Shown here piece after piece: positions 1 to 6,274 of a DNA stretch of 14,213 bases (position 1 is the first letter of the stretch; every line of letters begins with the position of its first letter). Source of the stretch: a virus. Lineage: Duplodnaviria > Heunggongvirae > Uroviricota > Caudoviricetes. The stretch lies in IMG/VR virus record IMGVR_UViG_2698536549_000018; one strand, written 5' to 3'. The position numbers and the translations under genes are program-made. The notes below the pieces were generated by a model. It was given only the letters and a program-made list of their open reading frames with translations. It was not told where the DNA came from and ran no database searches.

Positions 1-24
1 AAAAAAGCCCCTCCGGAGAGGGGC
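1..24 (-). terminator. Intrinsic terminator (hairpin GCCCCTC-CGGA-GAGGGGC followed by T6 on the minus strand)
   Basis: Plus strand reads A6 then perfect 7-bp GC stem with 4-nt loop at 7-24; on the minus strand this is stem-loop plus TTTTTT. Forms the 3' end of repeat copy A. Confidence 0.6.
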
Positions 25-237
25 CGATCGCTATGTATACACCATAAGCAGCATAGTGCCGGGTGCCTCCCGGTAGATTCAGCCTGACTACTGAATCTGC
101 GTATTGTGACCATCGCTATGGAGACCATGTCAGACGCCCCTCCGCACAGGGGGATTCACTATGCTGGCTCGTTTTTACAAGACTTCCATCGATCAGACAA
201 TAGTCCATCAACCGAATTGTGAGTCATTTAACATTTC
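4..237 (-). repeat. Copy A of a ~240-bp diverged noncoding repeat (terminator hairpin, CCGGGTGCCTCCCGG hairpin, CGCCCCTCCGCACAGGGGGATTCAC block, GAATTGTGAG..ATTTAACA block)
   Basis: Blocks at 7-24, 56-74, 135-159 and 214-237 recur in the same order and spacing at 1965-1982, 2016-2034, 2108-2132 and 2187-2210. No conserved ORF: the ATG after the second block opens a 28-codon frame here and a 10-codon frame in copy B. Confidence 0.6.
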
Positions 238-482
238 CATGAGGTAACTGATATCCAGCTAACAATCATCTACAATGGACGAAGCCAGTTCCAGAACTTG
301 CCCACGGTACAGCAACAACCACTGCATACACATAATTACCACCGGACTCTCTGAACCTGCCTCCTGGCTAACCCCAGATACAACACCACCAGTCACAAAA
401 GCATCTTATTCTGAAGTACAACTGCCGTGCGGCAGATACTAAAAGCGCCTGTATGTAACAACATAAATATACAGGATATGTT

Positions 483-761
483 TTATCCACGGGATATAAT
501 TTTGATTTCATCAAAACCGTTACTACCTGCAATTCTGTTGTACTCCTGAACAAGACTCAGTAACTCCGAATTAGCCGCGGTGAACTCCTCACAGACGTTC
601 CGAAGTGCATCTACATCCAGAAGAACCATCTCCTGACCTGAACGTCGATCAGGGGTACAAAATAAAACTGTCAGACGACTGAAGACCTTTGTTCGTTCCA
701 CATTGACGGCTTCAATACGCTGTAACAGTTGGCTACATCTGATTTTCTCATCAATATTCAC
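483..761 (-). CDS. Small hypothetical protein (92 aa, GTG start) immediately downstream of the AraC-family gene
   Basis: Open frame with protein-like composition; GTG start with weak SD; AT-rich like the adjacent regulator. Function not recognised; a PerC/Pch-like or ANR-like partner is only a hypothesis. Confidence 0.45.
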   Translation of the reverse strand: MNIDEKIRCSQLLQRIEAVNVERTKVFSRLTVLFCTPDRRSGQEMVLLDVDALRNVCEEFTAANSELLSLVQEYNRIAGSNGFDEIKIISRG

Positions 762-850
762 GCAAACACCAAATGATTATAACTCTTTATGCTGAACACA
801 TTCAGACTATATCTAATACAGTCAATCAATATATGCCTGATGAAAAAACA

Positions 851-1576
851 TCAGATAACGTCTGCTTTCTGCAAATATGCATAGCTCTCAGGTGGTGCAC
901 CATAATACTGGTGAAATACAGAAATGAAATAGGACTTACTTGAGTAACCACATTTTTCCGCTATCGCTTGTCCACACTCTCGCTGGAAACATACAAGATT
1001 AACAGCAACACGCATTCGCTCCTCCAGCAACAACCGACTAAAGCTATAACCTTCATCCTTAAGTTTTCGCTTCAACAAGCTTTCGCTCATATGCAATTGT
1101 AATGCAATCACACCTAGCATCCAGCCTGCCGATATGTCGGTCTGAATTATAGCCCTTACTTTACAGCTGATATTATTTACAGCACCGGACAAAAATAATG
1201 GCAGACGCCTGTCTGTTGCAAATAAGGAGATACATGAAAATGCGGTTATAACAGAGAAATCCTTCAAAGTATCACTGGATTCACTATGCTGGGTTATTAA
1301 AGCCTCCGCCAGTTCCGTATTGTAAATATCAGACATCAAATAAAGAGGCATTTTTGTCGGTGTATACTCCGTCAGTTCACACTCCCTTTCCAGATACTGA
1401 TTGACGACGCTGTTACTTATATCTGCCATTTTCACTCTGTCGGCATAAGCACAGAAAAGCCCTCTTATATTTCTGGCAACAAGCATAACACTTCCGGCAT
1501 CGAGTGAAACTTTTTCTTTTTCAAGAAAAATATCTATCGGATAGCGAATCAGGACCACAGAGCAGGCAACATCCAT
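851..1576 (-). CDS. AraC/XylS-family transcriptional regulator (241 aa)
   Basis: C-terminal ~100 aa has the double helix-turn-helix AraC signature (..SESLLKRKLKDEGYSFSRLLLEERMRVAVNL.. and ..IAEKCGYSSKSYFISVFHQYYGAPPESY..). AT-rich with a weak SD, typical of horizontally acquired Rns/AppY/GadX-like regulators. Confidence 0.85.
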   Translation of the reverse strand: MDVACSVVLIRYPIDIFLEKEKVSLDAGSVMLVARNIRGLFCAYADRVKMADISNSVVNQYLERECELTEYTPTKMPLYLMSDIYNTELAEALITQHSESSDTLKDFSVITAFSCISLFATDRRLPLFLSGAVNNISCKVRAIIQTDISAGWMLGVIALQLHMSESLLKRKLKDEGYSFSRLLLEERMRVAVNLVCFQRECGQAIAEKCGYSSKSYFISVFHQYYGAPPESYAYLQKADVI

Positions 1577-1642
1577 TTTGAATTAACCTGAGCAAAAAGA
1601 CTTAATACCAGTATATTCCAAAAATGGCATTTTGGGAGATTA

Positions 1643-1873
1643 CTTCTGCAAACCGCTCCCGCTAAATACATCCCTGATTTCCTGCGCAGTCTGTTCAAAA
1701 CGCCCGGTATCCAGCTCAACGCCAGTTGCACGACGCCCCAGCGCCATCGCTGCTTTAACTGCCGAACCCTACCCCATGAAGAAATCTGCAACCAGGCCAC
1801 CCGGCAGAAGGGAGACTACAGCCCGCAATTCGAAAAAGGCCGCGCTATTGCGCAGAGTGATTACTGTCGGGTA
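1643..1873 (-). pseudogene. C-terminal remnant of a beta-class N6-adenine/N4-cytosine DNA methyltransferase, with in-frame TAG and missing N-terminus
   Basis: Minus-strand translation gives ..LPGGLVADFFMG*GSAVKAAMALGRRATGVELDTGRFEQTAQEIRDVFSGSGLQK*, matching the C-terminal motif I region (DPFxGSGTT..A..LGR.FIGxEld) with TAG at the conserved Ser position (1769-1771). The frame is closed upstream by TAA at 1874-1876; not in the ORF track because it lacks a start. Confidence 0.5.
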
Positions 1874-1952: not shown

Positions 1953-1961
1953 GTCCATAAG

Positions 1962-2210
1962 AAAGCCCCTCCGGAGAGGGGCTGAAGCCGCATTTCTGTA
2001 TCACCATGAGCATGGTGCCGGGTGCCTCCCGGTGAGTTCAGCCCGGTGACACCAAACCCGCGTATTCTCGCTTACGATCATCAAAGAGATCATACCGTTC
2101 ACCAGTCGCCCCTCCGCACAGGGGGATTCACCATGCGAAATTTTTTTAACAAATGCTCAGTCTGACAGGCAACTGTCAACTTACTGAATTGTGAGGGATT
2201 TAACACTTCA
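1962..2210 (-). repeat. Copy B of the ~240-bp diverged noncoding repeat, including hairpin GCCCCTC-CGGA-GAGGGGC at 1965-1982
   Basis: Same ordered blocks as copy A (see 4-237). Lies directly 3' of the lipoprotein gene on the minus strand. Confidence 0.6.
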
Positions 2211-2271: not shown

Positions 2272-2700
2272 TCAGAGTTTAAAATCCAGCACGCCATTTC
2301 TAAATGCTTTATATACTCCTGAAGACGGTGGTGATGGTATATCAGCATTCTTTACTGCATTCATCGCTTCACGACATAAATCGGGATCACCGCTTTCTCT
2401 TTTAACCTGTAGCAGAAGACCATTCGGGGCCATATACATTCTCAGTGAACACTCTTTTCCTGAATACTTACTCGCATCCTTTAACTGTTCTTCTATGGCT
2501 TTCCTGACCTGAATGGCATACAGCCGGATTTCTTCACTGGCATCAGGGGTACGTTCCGATGAGCTCAAATTTTGCGACTTTATTAATTTATCTGAGTGAT
2601 ACAGAGAAGCATCATAATTATTTGTCGATACATCTTTTGTGCAGCCAGTTGTCAGACTGGCTAATATCAAAACAAGAACCGGTACAGCACGGCAATACAT
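2272..2700 (-). CDS. Lipoprotein with TolA C-terminal domain III-like domain (142 aa)
   Basis: N-terminal signal peptide with lipobox (LILASLTTG-C). C-terminal ~85 aa (YAIQVRKAIEEQLKDASKYSGKECSLRMYMAPNGLLLQVKRESGDPDLCREAMNAVKNADIPSPPSSGVYKAFRNGVLDFKL) aligns closely with the C-terminus of E. coli TolA as recalled (..YAGQIKSAIESKFYDASSYAGKTCTLRIKLAPDGMLLDIKPEGGDPALCQAALAAAKLAKIPKPPSQAVYEVFKNAPLDFKP). ATG start with GGAG upstream; AT-rich upstream region. Confidence 0.8.
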   Translation of the reverse strand: MYCRAVPVLVLILASLTTGCTKDVSTNNYDASLYHSDKLIKSQNLSSSERTPDASEEIRLYAIQVRKAIEEQLKDASKYSGKECSLRMYMAPNGLLLQVKRESGDPDLCREAMNAVKNADIPSPPSSGVYKAFRNGVLDFKL

Positions 2701-2978: not shown

Positions 2979-3055
2979 TGGACCGCCATCGAGGACTCGA
3001 ACCCCGCGCAGCCAGCTTCGAAGGCTGGCGCTCTATCCCGATGAGCTAATGGCGG
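2979..3055 (-). tRNA. tRNA-Arg (anticodon UCG by manual fold)
   Basis: Reverse complement folds as a cloverleaf: acceptor CCGCCAT/ATGGCGG (7 bp), D-arm GCTC..GAGC, anticodon stem CCAGC/GCTGG with loop CTTCGAA, T-arm CGGGG-TTCGAGT-CCTCG, discriminator and encoded CCA. Confidence 0.8.
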
Positions 3056-3064
3056 TATGTGATA

Positions 3065-3139
3065 TGGTGGCCTTGCTGGATTTGAACCAGCGACCTGGCG
3101 ATTATGAGTCGCTCGCTCTCACCACTGAGCTAAAGGGCC
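3065..3139 (-). tRNA. tRNA-Ile2/Met-like (anticodon CAU), ileX-like, with an apparent 1-nt deletion in the 3' acceptor strand
   Basis: Reverse complement GGCCCTTTAGCTCAGTGGTGAGAGCGAGCGACTCATAATCGCCAGGTCGCTGGTTCAAATCCAGCAAGGCCACCA resembles E. coli tRNA-Ile2. Anticodon loop CTCATAA, T-loop TTCAAAT. The 3' acceptor strand reads AAGGCC where AAGGGCC is needed to pair with 5' GGCCCTT. Confidence 0.7.
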
Positions 3140-3349: not shown

Positions 3350-4039
3350 TCAATCTACTTTTGCAACACTTTGCTTTGAAAATGCCGCCTTTTGTTTTGA
3401 ACGTGTTCTCATTACAAACAATAAAGCCTCACTATCCAGTCGGTGAAAAATGTGTTTCATTGCAACCCAGTGACGAGTAAATGTTTTGGACCAGTTTTTA
3501 GTTGTCACTCCCGCCAGTAATGCCAGCTCCTGGTATTCATAACCTTCCCCACCAAAAAGTTCTGCTTTTACTGCCTGCGCCGCCAGCCAGATTAATTTTT
3601 TCAGGCGTTCCTGCGTTTTCCCTGCAATTTTTCTGGTACCGGATTGAGTATTAAATTCATTCCACGCCCACTGTGTTATCGCGATCTGATATTCCCAACA
3701 AATACTCCCGCTGTAACTCCACAACAACCAGGCTTTATGATGTTCTTCAAGAGACAGAACAGCCCGCCGCCACGATGATGTCGAAAACTCAACCGGACTG
3801 ACCAGAGGAATTGACGTCCCCTTCGCCAGCGATTGTTTCCCCGGGATTGGTGGATTATCCCGCGTAATCATTTTTCCGGTCACTTCATCTCGGTACCGGA
3901 TTTTTTTACGCCTGTAACGCCCTGTATCGAACATGGCATTCTCCTGCCAGGCTTCAAGCTGACCTTTTGTTGCCCCACTCAAATCAGCGGTGGCGATAAT
4001 GAGCTGCTCACGCACAAACTGTAAATACTGGTTATTCAT
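3350..4039 (-). CDS. Putative late-gene antiterminator Q-like protein (229 aa from the ATG at 4039)
   Basis: Follows rusA with an ATGA start/stop overlap and precedes the tR'-like terminator and tRNAs, the canonical Q position. Trp-rich sequence; no lambda-Q zinc finger seen, so the family is assigned by position only. Confidence 0.55.
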   Translation of the reverse strand: MNNQYLQFVREQLIIATADLSGATKGQLEAWQENAMFDTGRYRRKKIRYRDEVTGKMITRDNPPIPGKQSLAKGTSIPLVSPVEFSTSSWRRAVLSLEEHHKAWLLWSYSGSICWEYQIAITQWAWNEFNTQSGTRKIAGKTQERLKKLIWLAAQAVKAELFGGEGYEYQELALLAGVTTKNWSKTFTRHWVAMKHIFHRLDSEALLFVMRTRSKQKAAFSKQSVAKVD

Positions 4040-4395
4040 GCGCACTCCAGTTCTGTGATTTTTATCCCCAGCCGCCCACCAGGAACGAGCTGACCGCGCA
4101 CAATATTGATTTCATCAAACTGCTCGTCGTCTATAAGTAGTCCGGCATGCGTCAGCGCATCCAGTGGTGCCTTCAGGATATTGTCCAAGTCGCGGCGGCG
4201 CTTATCCGGTGGCTCTGCAATAATCTTTATCGCCAGCCTTCCGGACAGGTTTAATTTCAGCCGCTGCTGGCGAACAATAAGCGCCACATCATGGCGATAA
4301 CGCTTTCCGGCCTCCGAGATGAAATACGTATTGCCATGACGTCGCCAGTAGGTATTCACCGTCGGCGGGTAAGGCAAAACAAACTCTATACACAT
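4036..4395 (-). CDS. rusA: Holliday junction resolvase RusA (119 aa from the ATG)
   Basis: Sequence matches the RusA family (..YRHDVALIVRQQ..PPDKRRRDLDNILKAPLDALTHAGLLIDDEQ..GGRLGIKITE..), including the catalytic D-rich core. SD GGGGG upstream of the ATG at 4395. Confidence 0.85.
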   Translation of the reverse strand: MCIEFVLPYPPTVNTYWRRHGNTYFISEAGKRYRHDVALIVRQQRLKLNLSGRLAIKIIAEPPDKRRRDLDNILKAPLDALTHAGLLIDDEQFDEINIVRGQLVPGGRLGIKITELECA

Positions 4396-4409: not shown

Positions 4410-5467
4410 TTACCCAAGCACACCGGTTGCAAAGGCGTGATCAAGAAAACGAAAAATTAAATCAACCTGAGAACCATGCTTTTCTTCGAACGCCAGCGGA
4501 TCCACATGAAGCTCGTTATGATGCTCCCGACACAGCGGTAGCGTGAAAATATCGTGGGCTTTTGTTCCCATTCCCCCCTGACCATGACCAATCAGGTGAT
4601 GCGGATCGTCAGCTGGCTTACCACAACACGCACACGGCTGTGTCTTTACCCAGCGCGTGTATTTCTCATTAACCCAACGGCGATGTTTAGGCCGCTTCAT
4701 AAACGATTCAGGAGACTCCGGATCAACGGCGATACTGACAACCGTTTTTTTCTGTGGTGGATTTTGTTGCTGGTGGACGTGAAGTGGCAGCGCAATATTT
4801 TTTGTGCGCTGCTTCAGTATGCTGATGGCTGTCTGTTCTCCCGGTACGATGTCACTCTCACGGTATACGGAGCGGATTTTTTCCNNNNNNNNNNNNNNNN
4901 NNNNNNNNNNNNNNNNNNNNNNNNNNNNNNNNNNGCATCCACCACCTGATTGCAGGCCGCCCACCAGGATAATTCGGCCAGCGATAACTCCCTCTCCTGC
5001 GTACCGCTTATTGCGTGACGTATAACATCAATCATCCAGACTGCCAGATTCTGCTGAGCAAGTTGATCGAGTGATTCTGATGTCTGGTCGCGCAGCTGGT
5101 TGTCACAGTGCCAGCACAACACCATCGCGCCGGTACCGTAACGATGTATGACTGTTTCACTGTGATGATAGTCACCATGAGGCCACTGGCAGGATTTGAC
5201 ATGACGCAACAGCCAGTCAGACAGTGCGCCAGCGCCGCCAGCAGCACGAATCACCCGCTCATCGCTGAAAAATGGCAGTAATGATTTATCTTCCGCCAGC
5301 GGCTGGCGAACAGCAGGAACAACTCCGGACGGCAGACCGCGCATGCTTTTCGGTTCCGGCTCCACCAGCACTCGAGGGTTATGAAATACCTGCATGGATT
5401 CACGGCCCGGCTTTAGCACCACCAGTCCAAGTTCCGGTACCGGAACAGGTCGAAGCAATACCCGCAC
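4410..5467 (-). CDS. DUF968-like prophage protein (YdfU-like, ~350 aa) with Cys/His-rich HNH-like C-terminal region; interrupted by an assembly gap
   Basis: Two ORF-track pieces (4410-4964 and 4814-5467) are separated only by the N run and are in different frames, consistent with a gap of arbitrary length. C-terminal motif ..CACCGKPADDPHHL..HGQGGMGTKAHD..LPLCREHHNELH... GTG start at 5467 with GGAGG 5 nt upstream. Confidence 0.7.
4885..4934. other. Assembly gap (50 N) inside the DUF968-like gene
   Basis: Run of n characters read directly from the sequence. Confidence 0.99.
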
Positions 5468-5907: not shown

Positions 5908-6063
5908 TTACTTCTCAGATTCGTAGTCCACGAAGACAGCGACCTCCGTCTGGCCGGTTCGGATTCGTACCTCGCAGAGGTCTTTCCTCGTTACCAGTGC
6001 CGTCACTATGACGGTTAAACAGATGACGATCAGGGCGACTAACATCGCCTTTTGCTGCTTCAT
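5908..6063 (-). CDS. hok: Hok/Gef-family type I toxin (51 aa); in-frame upstream ATG at 6120 gives a 70-codon mok-like frame
   Basis: MKQQKAMLVALIVICLTVIVTALVTRKDLCEVRIRTGQTEVAVFVDYESEK matches the Hok signature (single TM helix, conserved ..RK.LCE.R...G..EVAAF..YES..). GGAG SD upstream of the ATG at 6063; terminator downstream. Confidence 0.85.
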   Translation of the reverse strand: MKQQKAMLVALIVICLTVIVTALVTRKDLCEVRIRTGQTEVAVFVDYESEK

Positions 6064-6274
6064 AGACTGCTTCTCCTTGCCTTTCGGCACGTAAGAGGCT
6101 AACCTACATTTGTGAGACATAGATTGGGCCTCAGATTAATGTTAAGCGTCTTGCAGGACGCGTAATGTTAACTGGGGCTTTTCTCTATCTGCCTTTTGGT
6201 GTTCATGCCTGAGGCAGATAGCCTCAAGCACCCGCAGCAATTCTACTTAACTCTCCTTTTCCCGCAAACCGTTT

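Follow-up and report, generated by a model that had tools for sequence, protein, structure and literature searches.

A candidate cargo module pairing an AraC-family regulator gene with a small helical-protein gene in a Shiga toxin phage-like lambdoid prophage

Introduction

How did a gene for an AraC/XylS-family regulator and an open reading frame (ORF) of 92 codons come to stand together in the late region of a lambdoid prophage, between what appear to be two copies of one repeat, and what might they do for the bacterium that carries them? The stretch of DNA that raises this question, referred to here as the window, comprises 14,213 nucleotides (nt) of a caudoviricete virus (IMG/VR record IMGVR_UViG_2698536549_000018) and is 99.86% identical to Escherichia coli strain N51. 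An initial annotation, made from the sequence alone, had proposed an AT-rich two-gene cargo cassette at 483-1576 that was inserted by recombination between two flanking copies of a noncoding element of about 240 bp. Our analysis supports the view that a lambdoid prophage acquired the two genes as a cargo unit, and points to another origin of the arrangement. The pair is likely to be phage cargo (a "moron" module) within the late operon of a prophage resembling the Shiga toxin (Stx) phages, in which a YdeO/GadX-like AraC factor and a co-inherited two-helix protein of 92 amino acids (aa), here called orf92, take the position of the stx genes, with the arrangement seen in the window deriving from a recombination junction.

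The cassette in the position of the Shiga toxin genes

The two genes and their immediate surroundings are listed below in window coordinates. All late-region features lie on the minus strand, which is the direction of late transcription in the lambdoid prophage.

851..1576, minus strand: AraC/XylS regulator, WP_000382066.1, 241 aa, ATG start; YdeO/GadX/Rns-like
762..850, minus strand: spacer between AraC and orf92, 89 bp, AT-rich (30% GC), without a terminator-like site (composition and pattern scan)
483..761, minus strand: orf92, 92 aa, GTG start; conserved protein, predicted two-helix hairpin
422..435, minus strand: terminator-like hairpin 48 nt past the orf92 stop, with a weak T tract (pattern scan only)

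The position of the cassette is seen in strain SMBL, where the gene order is Q, a hypothetical gene, an intact DNA-methyltransferase gene, AraC, orf92, two copies of the small RNA (sRNA) gene STnc100, the esterase gene nanS-p and holin. This region is collinear with the Stx2a phage Stx2_95, at 96.6% identity on the flank with the methyltransferase gene and 85% on that with STnc100/nanS-p, and between these flanks 1726 bp with AraC, orf92 and one STnc100 gene replace the 1708 bp of Stx2_95 that hold three tRNA genes, stx2A and stx2B. Because the two sequences are collinear on both sides of the exchanged segment, the cassette occupies, as judged by this alignment, the Shiga toxin slot of Stx2 phages. 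Its native position would be between the phage DNA-methyltransferase gene and the STnc100/nanS-p genes, corresponding to the slot for tRNAs and stxAB in those phages. The order methyltransferase, AraC, orf92 is kept in an independent lineage (loci L009, L020 and L021), in which the AraC and orf92 proteins are 63% and 61% identical to those of the window and orf92 is followed by TerB, DUF3927 and holin genes.

AraC-orf92 DNA is present in 80 of 5426 complete E. coli genomes, at 99% identity or more and on the chromosome in every case. The carriers were isolated from cattle, humans, a goat and birds, and include strains labelled O91:H21, O113:H21, O178:H19, O104:H21 and O22:H8, which we take to be serotypes of Shiga toxin-producing E. 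coli (STEC) negative for the locus of enterocyte effacement.

The AraC-family regulator

The regulator gene is intact. The C-terminus of its product matches Pfam HTH_18 (2.6e-12, 47.3 bits, residues 158-232; gathering cutoff 33.6 bits) and HTH_AraC (1.4e-10, 41.5 bits; cutoff 26.6 bits), and this double helix-turn-helix DNA-binding domain, scoring above the gathering cutoffs, places the protein in the AraC/XylS family. The NCBIfam model for YdeO (NF007407) aligns over the full length (E 1.4e-34, residues 1-230 against model positions 1-228 of 253), GadX is the next NCBIfam match (2.2e-26), and the protein falls into phrog_1450 (4.8e-92). The nearest solved DNA-binding domains are those of GadX (3mkl, 1.9e-18), Rns, CsvR and ToxT. 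With homologues that are 58-63% identical, the ratio of nonsynonymous to synonymous substitution rates (dN/dS) is 0.15-0.21, indicating purifying selection.

Several claims of the initial annotation are borne out by these data. The ORF list and the Pfam matches agree with an intact regulator gene and a 92-codon ORF at the coordinates given above, and both models and solved domains place the regulator in the acid-resistance/virulence branch, close to YdeO, GadX and Rns. The ribosome-binding sites are indeed weak: no Shine-Dalgarno sequence was found upstream of the AraC start, and orf92 has GGTG 5 nt 5' of its GTG. The AT-rich bias is real, at 40.9% GC for 483-1576 versus 47.0% for the window, but it is moderate and not extreme.

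Beyond its own clone of at least 99% identity, the nearest relatives of the regulator are prophage AraC proteins that are 54-63% identical. One of them, ECs_1087 of Sakai prophage Sp4 (58% identical), belongs to a gene family found in 726 of the 5426 genomes. A more distant relative is encoded in prophage CP-933H (OI-8) of strain EDL933, with 37% identity over 233 aa, and was equated with PatE from its position alone; PatE has been described as z0321 of OI-8 (PMC10877973). Reviews describe PatE, PsrB and AppY as activators of gadE/hdeAB that increase acid resistance (PMC10877973; PMC10057817).

A further AraC gene of this kind, 59% identical, lies in phage phiSTEC1575-Stx2k (L004, 4001-6500), directly 5' of three tRNA genes and stx2k. 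In the same phage an STnc100 gene overlaps the end of stx2B and a gene for an IraM-like anti-adaptor lies just 3', so that acid- or stress-linked regulators and the toxin are found within one late-operon block.

The small gene orf92

The second gene of the pair is left unannotated by the prokaryotic genome annotation pipeline (PGAP) of RefSeq in all four genomes inspected (L001, L002, L006 and L010). In L002, the approximately 1.8 kb from AraC to nanS-p is devoid of annotation, yet holds one protein gene and four sRNA genes. The view implicit in such annotation, that orf92 is a chance ORF in AT-rich spacer DNA, is in line with its GTG start and with the weak Shine-Dalgarno sequence in the window, and the comparative data speak against it. 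Homologues in mEp460_ev081 (L003) and in a metagenomic contig (L009) are 58-61% identical at the aa level and have exactly 92 codons, zero indels, and the same GTG start and conserved stop. Pairwise dN/dS is 0.23-0.33, and differences at third codon positions are about twice those at positions 1 and 2. The L009 homologue has AGGAG as its ribosome-binding site and a clear hairpin with a T-run immediately 3' of the gene.

Profile searches extend the family. The whole of orf92 (residues 1-92) matches positions 17-108 of the 108-position profile of phrog_2873 (E 1e-46, 158.6 bits), and phrog_4827 is matched at 2.8e-7; neither has an assigned function, a Pfam or NCBIfam model or a solved structure. 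The family proper is restricted to E. coli/Shigella and forms three main clades, and an exhaustive HMMER search returned additional relatives of 91-95 aa with 25-38% identity. AlphaFold2 predicts a two-helix hairpin with helices at residues 3-35 and 50-81 (predicted local distance difference test, pLDDT, 86). An indel-free frame with conserved start and stop, the excess of third-position changes, the PHROG matches, the relatives of matching length and a fold predicted with confidence make a chance ORF extremely unlikely, and we conclude from this comparative sequence evidence that orf92 is a real protein-coding gene under purifying selection. The case in which the ORF would have neither homologues nor a coding signal, raised in the initial annotation, is not what was found.

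What kind of protein orf92 might be is narrowed by a series of negative results. It has zero matches in Pfam at E<=0.1 and no family match in NCBIfam or PADLOC. The suggestion that it is a PerC/Pch-like activator did not hold up: none of eight orf92-family members matched PerC at E<=10, and a Pfam scan of each member gave nothing consistent. For the AraC negative regulators (ANR/Aar), orf92 had zero Pfam or NCBIfam matches, the presence of an ANR model in those libraries being unverified. Fold searches returned generic hairpins only. The top match from a search of the profile against Protein Data Bank sequences, a UPF0335/GapR-like chain (6cg8), was dropped as not significant (E 0.6).

The flanking repeat and the junction

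The initial annotation had seen the cassette as bracketed by a duplicated noncoding element. The repeat is real, and it goes beyond chance because both copies match the Rfam STnc100 model (RF02076) above its gathering score of 47 bits; the element, however, consists of STnc100 sRNA genes.

1953..2165, minus strand: STnc100, upstream copy (RF02076, 172.4 bits, E 9e-40); part of the tRNA, TolA-like and STnc100 module, not of the cassette
1..193, minus strand: STnc100/PasD-family gene, downstream copy (RF02076, 113.2 bits, E 1.3e-24); 3' end cut by the window edge
194..237, minus strand: conserved 5' flanking sequence of the sRNA gene, forming the upstream portion of the repeat (repeat alignment; nine family copies)

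The 5' flank at 194..237 may hold the sRNA promoter, and a terminator hairpin of the downstream copy is present at 25..6. Similarity between the copies is concentrated in three blocks, 1-27 with 1959-1985 (93%), 50-84 with 2009-2043 (89%) and 131-237 with 2103-2209 (73%), and by blastn the two are approximately 70.7% identical over 256 nt. Their GC content is 50-54%. The upstream copy is 92% identical to the copy just 3' of stx2B in phage Stx2_95; in published work, STnc100 has been located 75 nt downstream of stx2 (PMC12370729), and STnc100/PasD has been described as a prophage sRNA family beside the sialate esterase gene of Stx-like phages (bioRxiv 10.64898/2026.05.13.724894). The flanking element thus comprises two diverged genes of a known prophage sRNA family and is not an insertion scar, and the two copies are old paralogues, not the product of a recent duplication.

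In related strains, the downstream copy is the first of a tandem array of diverged STnc100/PasD-family genes between orf92 and nanS-p, which sits just left of window position 1. The array has four copies in L002 (3214-4193), three in L010 (3766-4474) and two in L006 (6305-6754); copy number varies between strains, and therefore these sRNA genes do recombine. The published survey of the family emphasises distal copies acquired via separate phages and not tandem duplication (bioRxiv 10.64898/2026.05.13.724894). On the upstream side, a strong terminator-like hairpin (GCCCGCG..CGCGGGC followed by T7) at 1924-1945 on the plus strand stands back to back with the STnc100 terminator at 1983-1964 on the minus strand, and another minus-strand hairpin at 1855..1840 makes this a terminator cluster at the module boundary.

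If the repeats are sRNA genes, how did the arrangement in the window arise? Along the direction of late transcription the order is Q, two tRNA genes, a TolA-like gene, STnc100, a methyltransferase remnant, AraC, orf92 and the second STnc100. The features that matter here, in addition to those already given, are the following.

3350..4045, minus strand: late antiterminator Q (Pfam Phage_antiter_Q, 7.2e-91); defines the late operon for the features 3' of it
2982..3139, minus strand: two phage tRNA genes, Arg and Ile/Met-CAU type (Rfam tRNA, 55 and 60 bits; PGAP annotation in L010)
2272..2700, minus strand: protein with a TolA C-terminal domain (Pfam TolA, 4.6e-22; phrog_5772); separate cargo
1803..1806, no strand: recombination junction, with the SMBL-type methyltransferase-AraC module to the left and the post-STnc100 sequence of Stx2a phages to the right
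1640..1804, minus strand: DNA-methyltransferase remnant, the 3' 165 nt (PGAP pseudogene in L001 and L002; collinear with the intact SMBL gene up to 1804)

Followed rightwards, homology to SMBL ends at 1804, inside the methyltransferase gene, and from 1803 on the sequence is 92% identical to the region after stx2B in Stx2_95 (STnc100 plus 150 bp downstream). The microhomology at the junction is about 2 nt. This junction at 1803/1804 is present in 79 of the 80 carriers, SMBL being the sole genome in which this place is intact. In N51, part of the remnant (1640-1747, minus strand) is called by PGAP as a 35-aa "hypothetical protein", WP_021293244.1, and it is a pseudogene elsewhere. A single non-homologous joining at 1803/1804 would have truncated the methyltransferase gene and brought together a left module (Q, tRNAs, TolA-like gene, STnc100) and a right module (methyltransferase 3' end, AraC, orf92, STnc100 array, nanS-p). 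On this model the upstream STnc100 copy would have arrived with the tRNA/TolA-like module, and the downstream copy would belong to the tandem array that closes the slot.

The alternative put forward in the initial annotation is that AraC-orf92 was inserted or duplicated via homologous recombination between repeats of about 240 bp that bound a mobile cassette. The copies do flank the cassette in direct orientation, they share exact blocks of 19-26 nt, the downstream array varies between two and four copies, and the downstream copy stands at one boundary of the stretch not shared with the Stx2 phage. The identity of only about 70% between the copies speaks against such an event, as does the breakpoint, which lies approximately 150 bp downstream of the upstream sRNA gene, within the methyltransferase remnant and outside both repeats. 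Moreover, SMBL carries the cassette at 99% identity or more without the upstream sRNA copy, and in the L020/L021 lineage STnc100 was not found within 6 kb on either side of the cassette; relatives thus have the cassette in a setting without flanking repeats. Since each of the two flanking copies comes from a module of its own and neither contains the junction, insertion mediated by the repeats is contradicted; this explanation is largely refuted, and we regard it as very unlikely.

Returning to the junction model, the stretch in which the cassette-bearing prophage departs from the Stx2 phage is bounded by the conserved sRNA gene and the 3' end of the methyltransferase gene, and it is plausible that these two serve as homology anchors in cargo exchange.

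Linkage between the two genes

The AraC and orf92 genes have been inherited together in two lineages at similar divergence (63% for AraC and 61% for orf92). They are on the same strand, with a spacer of 89-130 bp and no terminator between them, and the small, all-helical predicted fold of orf92 would suit protein-protein contacts. These observations would fit a dedicated AraC partner that adjusts the output of the regulator by binding to it (or to H-NS), whether as a co-activator or as an anti-activator of the ANR/Aar kind. Against this, orf92 occurs without an AraC neighbour in the mEp460-type clade, where the order is Q, tRNAs, orf92 and STnc100, and the same holds for P0080-P0083, the four distant homologues inspected for their surroundings. 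The lack of family matches in Pfam, NCBIfam and PADLOC (PerC included) and the generic hairpins from the fold searches also count against it. In addition, ANR proteins have about 60-70 aa and three helices, whereas orf92 has 92 aa and two long helices. We consider a dedicated partner rather unlikely.

The contexts of the distant homologues are diverse. P0080 and P0082 lie in other prophage late regions, while P0081 and P0083 (L012 and L013; 34-38% identical) lie outside obvious phage late regions, P0081 adjoining a gene for a PapB-type fimbrial regulator with an usher gene and P0083 a gene for a GerE/LuxR-type regulator. A stretch of 0.55-0.9 kb without a called gene lies 5' of each of the four (L011-L014), and tblastn detected no AraC pseudogenes beside them.

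The AraC gene, for its part, is found without orf92 in O157 and Stx2k phages. Each gene occurs without the other, and a functional link is therefore not required; AraC and orf92 are separable cargo, for which a dedicated partnership is possible.

Could orf92 be tied instead to the sRNA gene that follows it, as one transcription unit with an sRNA made from its 3' part, or as a protein that acts with the sRNA? An STnc100 gene lies 233-290 nt 3' of orf92 in the window type, in mEp460_ev081 (L003) and in L022. This proximity is not general: STnc100 is not nearby in the L020/L021 lineage or beside the distant homologues in L011 and L014. The sRNA also exists apart from orf92 in thousands of prophages (2672 genomes match part of 1-2300, versus 80 with the cassette), and the sRNA family has a conserved 5' flank of its own. 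Such a tie is quite unlikely.

More broadly, AraC and orf92 might form a two-component regulatory module, with orf92 as the founding member of a family of small helical-hairpin modulators and the methyltransferase/STnc100 interval as a general exchangeable cargo slot. We regard this wider scheme as rather improbable. If true, orf92-type modulators, common in enterobacterial prophage late regions, would directly tune an AraC-type or other host regulator, and the regulator module and Shiga toxin would be alternative payloads, with the conserved sRNA gene as the downstream recombination anchor.

Proposed role

For the reading we prefer, in which the two genes are cargo at the toxin position, a working model can be outlined. 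Upon induction both genes would be read from the Q-dependent late promoter, and in the lysogen a weak promoter of the cassette itself would probably drive them. The regulator would bind AT-rich host promoters, with the acid-fitness island (gadE, hdeAB) as the likely target by analogy with YdeO, GadX, AppY, PatE and PsrB, and could thereby raise acid tolerance and modulate colonisation genes in hosts that are mostly bovine or STEC. orf92 would be an independent small helical protein, most likely acting via protein-protein contacts. The alignment to the YdeO model, the GadX-like domain, the identity to the presumed PatE and the literature on PatE, PsrB and AppY all suggest that the regulator probably activates host acid-resistance genes.

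Several observations weigh against this picture. The YdeO alignment scores 119.8 bits, against a curated cutoff of 348 for an equivalog; because the model score is below the cutoff, the regulator is by this sequence test a related paralogue and not YdeO. Identity to the presumed PatE is only 37%, PsrA and PsrB were not located and no homologue of the AraC protein was found in the CP-933N region of EDL933, and the closest relatives (58%, e.g., ECs_1087) are themselves uncharacterised, as far as could be established. A literature search on WP_000382066 returned no paper naming the accession. A consensus scan gave no sigma-70-like promoter upstream of AraC or orf92, promoter-like sites being no commoner than in shuffled sequence. 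Finally, the occurrence of orf92 without AraC (the mEp460-type clade and all four distant homologues examined) and of AraC without orf92 (the O157 and Stx2k phages) means that the two need not be functionally linked.

Neighbouring genes

The TolA-domain protein encoded at 2272-2700 has 142 aa, an N-terminal signal and a lipobox-like sequence (..LTTGC), and is labelled "cell envelope integrity protein TolA" by PGAP. It may be a mimic or decoy of TolA, e.g., against colicins or TolA-using phages.

What remains of the window is early-region DNA of a Rac-like lambdoid prophage, with YdaS/YdaT, DUF977, hok/sok, DUF968 and RusA. The hok/sok type I toxin-antitoxin locus (6061-6233, minus strand; Rfam sok, 119.7 bits) lies in the transition from the early to the late region, and this element recurs in most of the related loci (L003, L010, L011 and L022). 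The DUF968 gene is broken into two ORFs (4410-4964 and 4814-5467, minus strand) that overlap and differ in frame, and the window has 50 nt at 4885-4934 where N51 has 42 nt. Since this difference splits the gene into two frames, DUF968 is probably frameshifted in the window.

Comparison with known systems

Prophage regulators of the PatE, PsrB and AppY type rewire host acid resistance and virulence, and the regulator described here is a candidate fitness factor for gut passage. Its lineage is present in approximately 1.5% of complete E. coli genomes, and many of the carriers are derived from cattle or patients and have STEC designations or serotypes (O91:H21, O113:H21). A cassette at the toxin position illustrates cleanly that one phage slot can take alternative payloads, and orf92 is a conserved coding gene that RefSeq annotation misses. 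Since apparent flanking repeats in such prophages are sRNA genes, they can mislead inferences about cassette insertion.

Prophage AraC-like regulators are known; of modest interest in this one are its place in the stx slot, the unannotated family of small helical proteins with which it travels and its flanks made of sRNA genes that occur in tandem arrays. The regulator resembles PatE, PsrA/PsrB of O157:H7, AppY of DLP12 and YdeO/GadX/GadW in family, size and C-terminal double helix-turn-helix. Like the prophage-encoded AraC-like regulators of acid resistance, it is AT-rich cargo of a lambdoid prophage. Its gene lies between Q and the lysis genes, and it shares 58% identity and an equivalent late-region position with the AraC genes of O157 prophages (Sp4 ECs_1087). 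It differs from them in that its lineage has no homologue above 63% outside its own clone of at least 99% identity, in its place within the stx slot, 3' of the methyltransferase gene and not upstream of tRNA genes, in being paired with orf92, and in occurring mainly in non-O157 strains.

The locus has the backbone, slot boundaries and Q-operon orientation of the Stx2 phage locus (Q, methyltransferase, tRNAs, stx2AB, STnc100, nanS-p, lysis), with 85-97% collinear identity to Stx2_95, whereas its cargo is a regulator and a small protein in place of toxin and tRNAs, with an extra sRNA copy. The repeat copies share with the STnc100/PasD family the conserved hairpins and terminator, an end-to-end match to the model and adjacency to the esterase gene, and differ in their arrangement as one upstream copy plus a tandem array of two to four diverged copies. 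orf92, in turn, is matched over its full length by phrog_2873.

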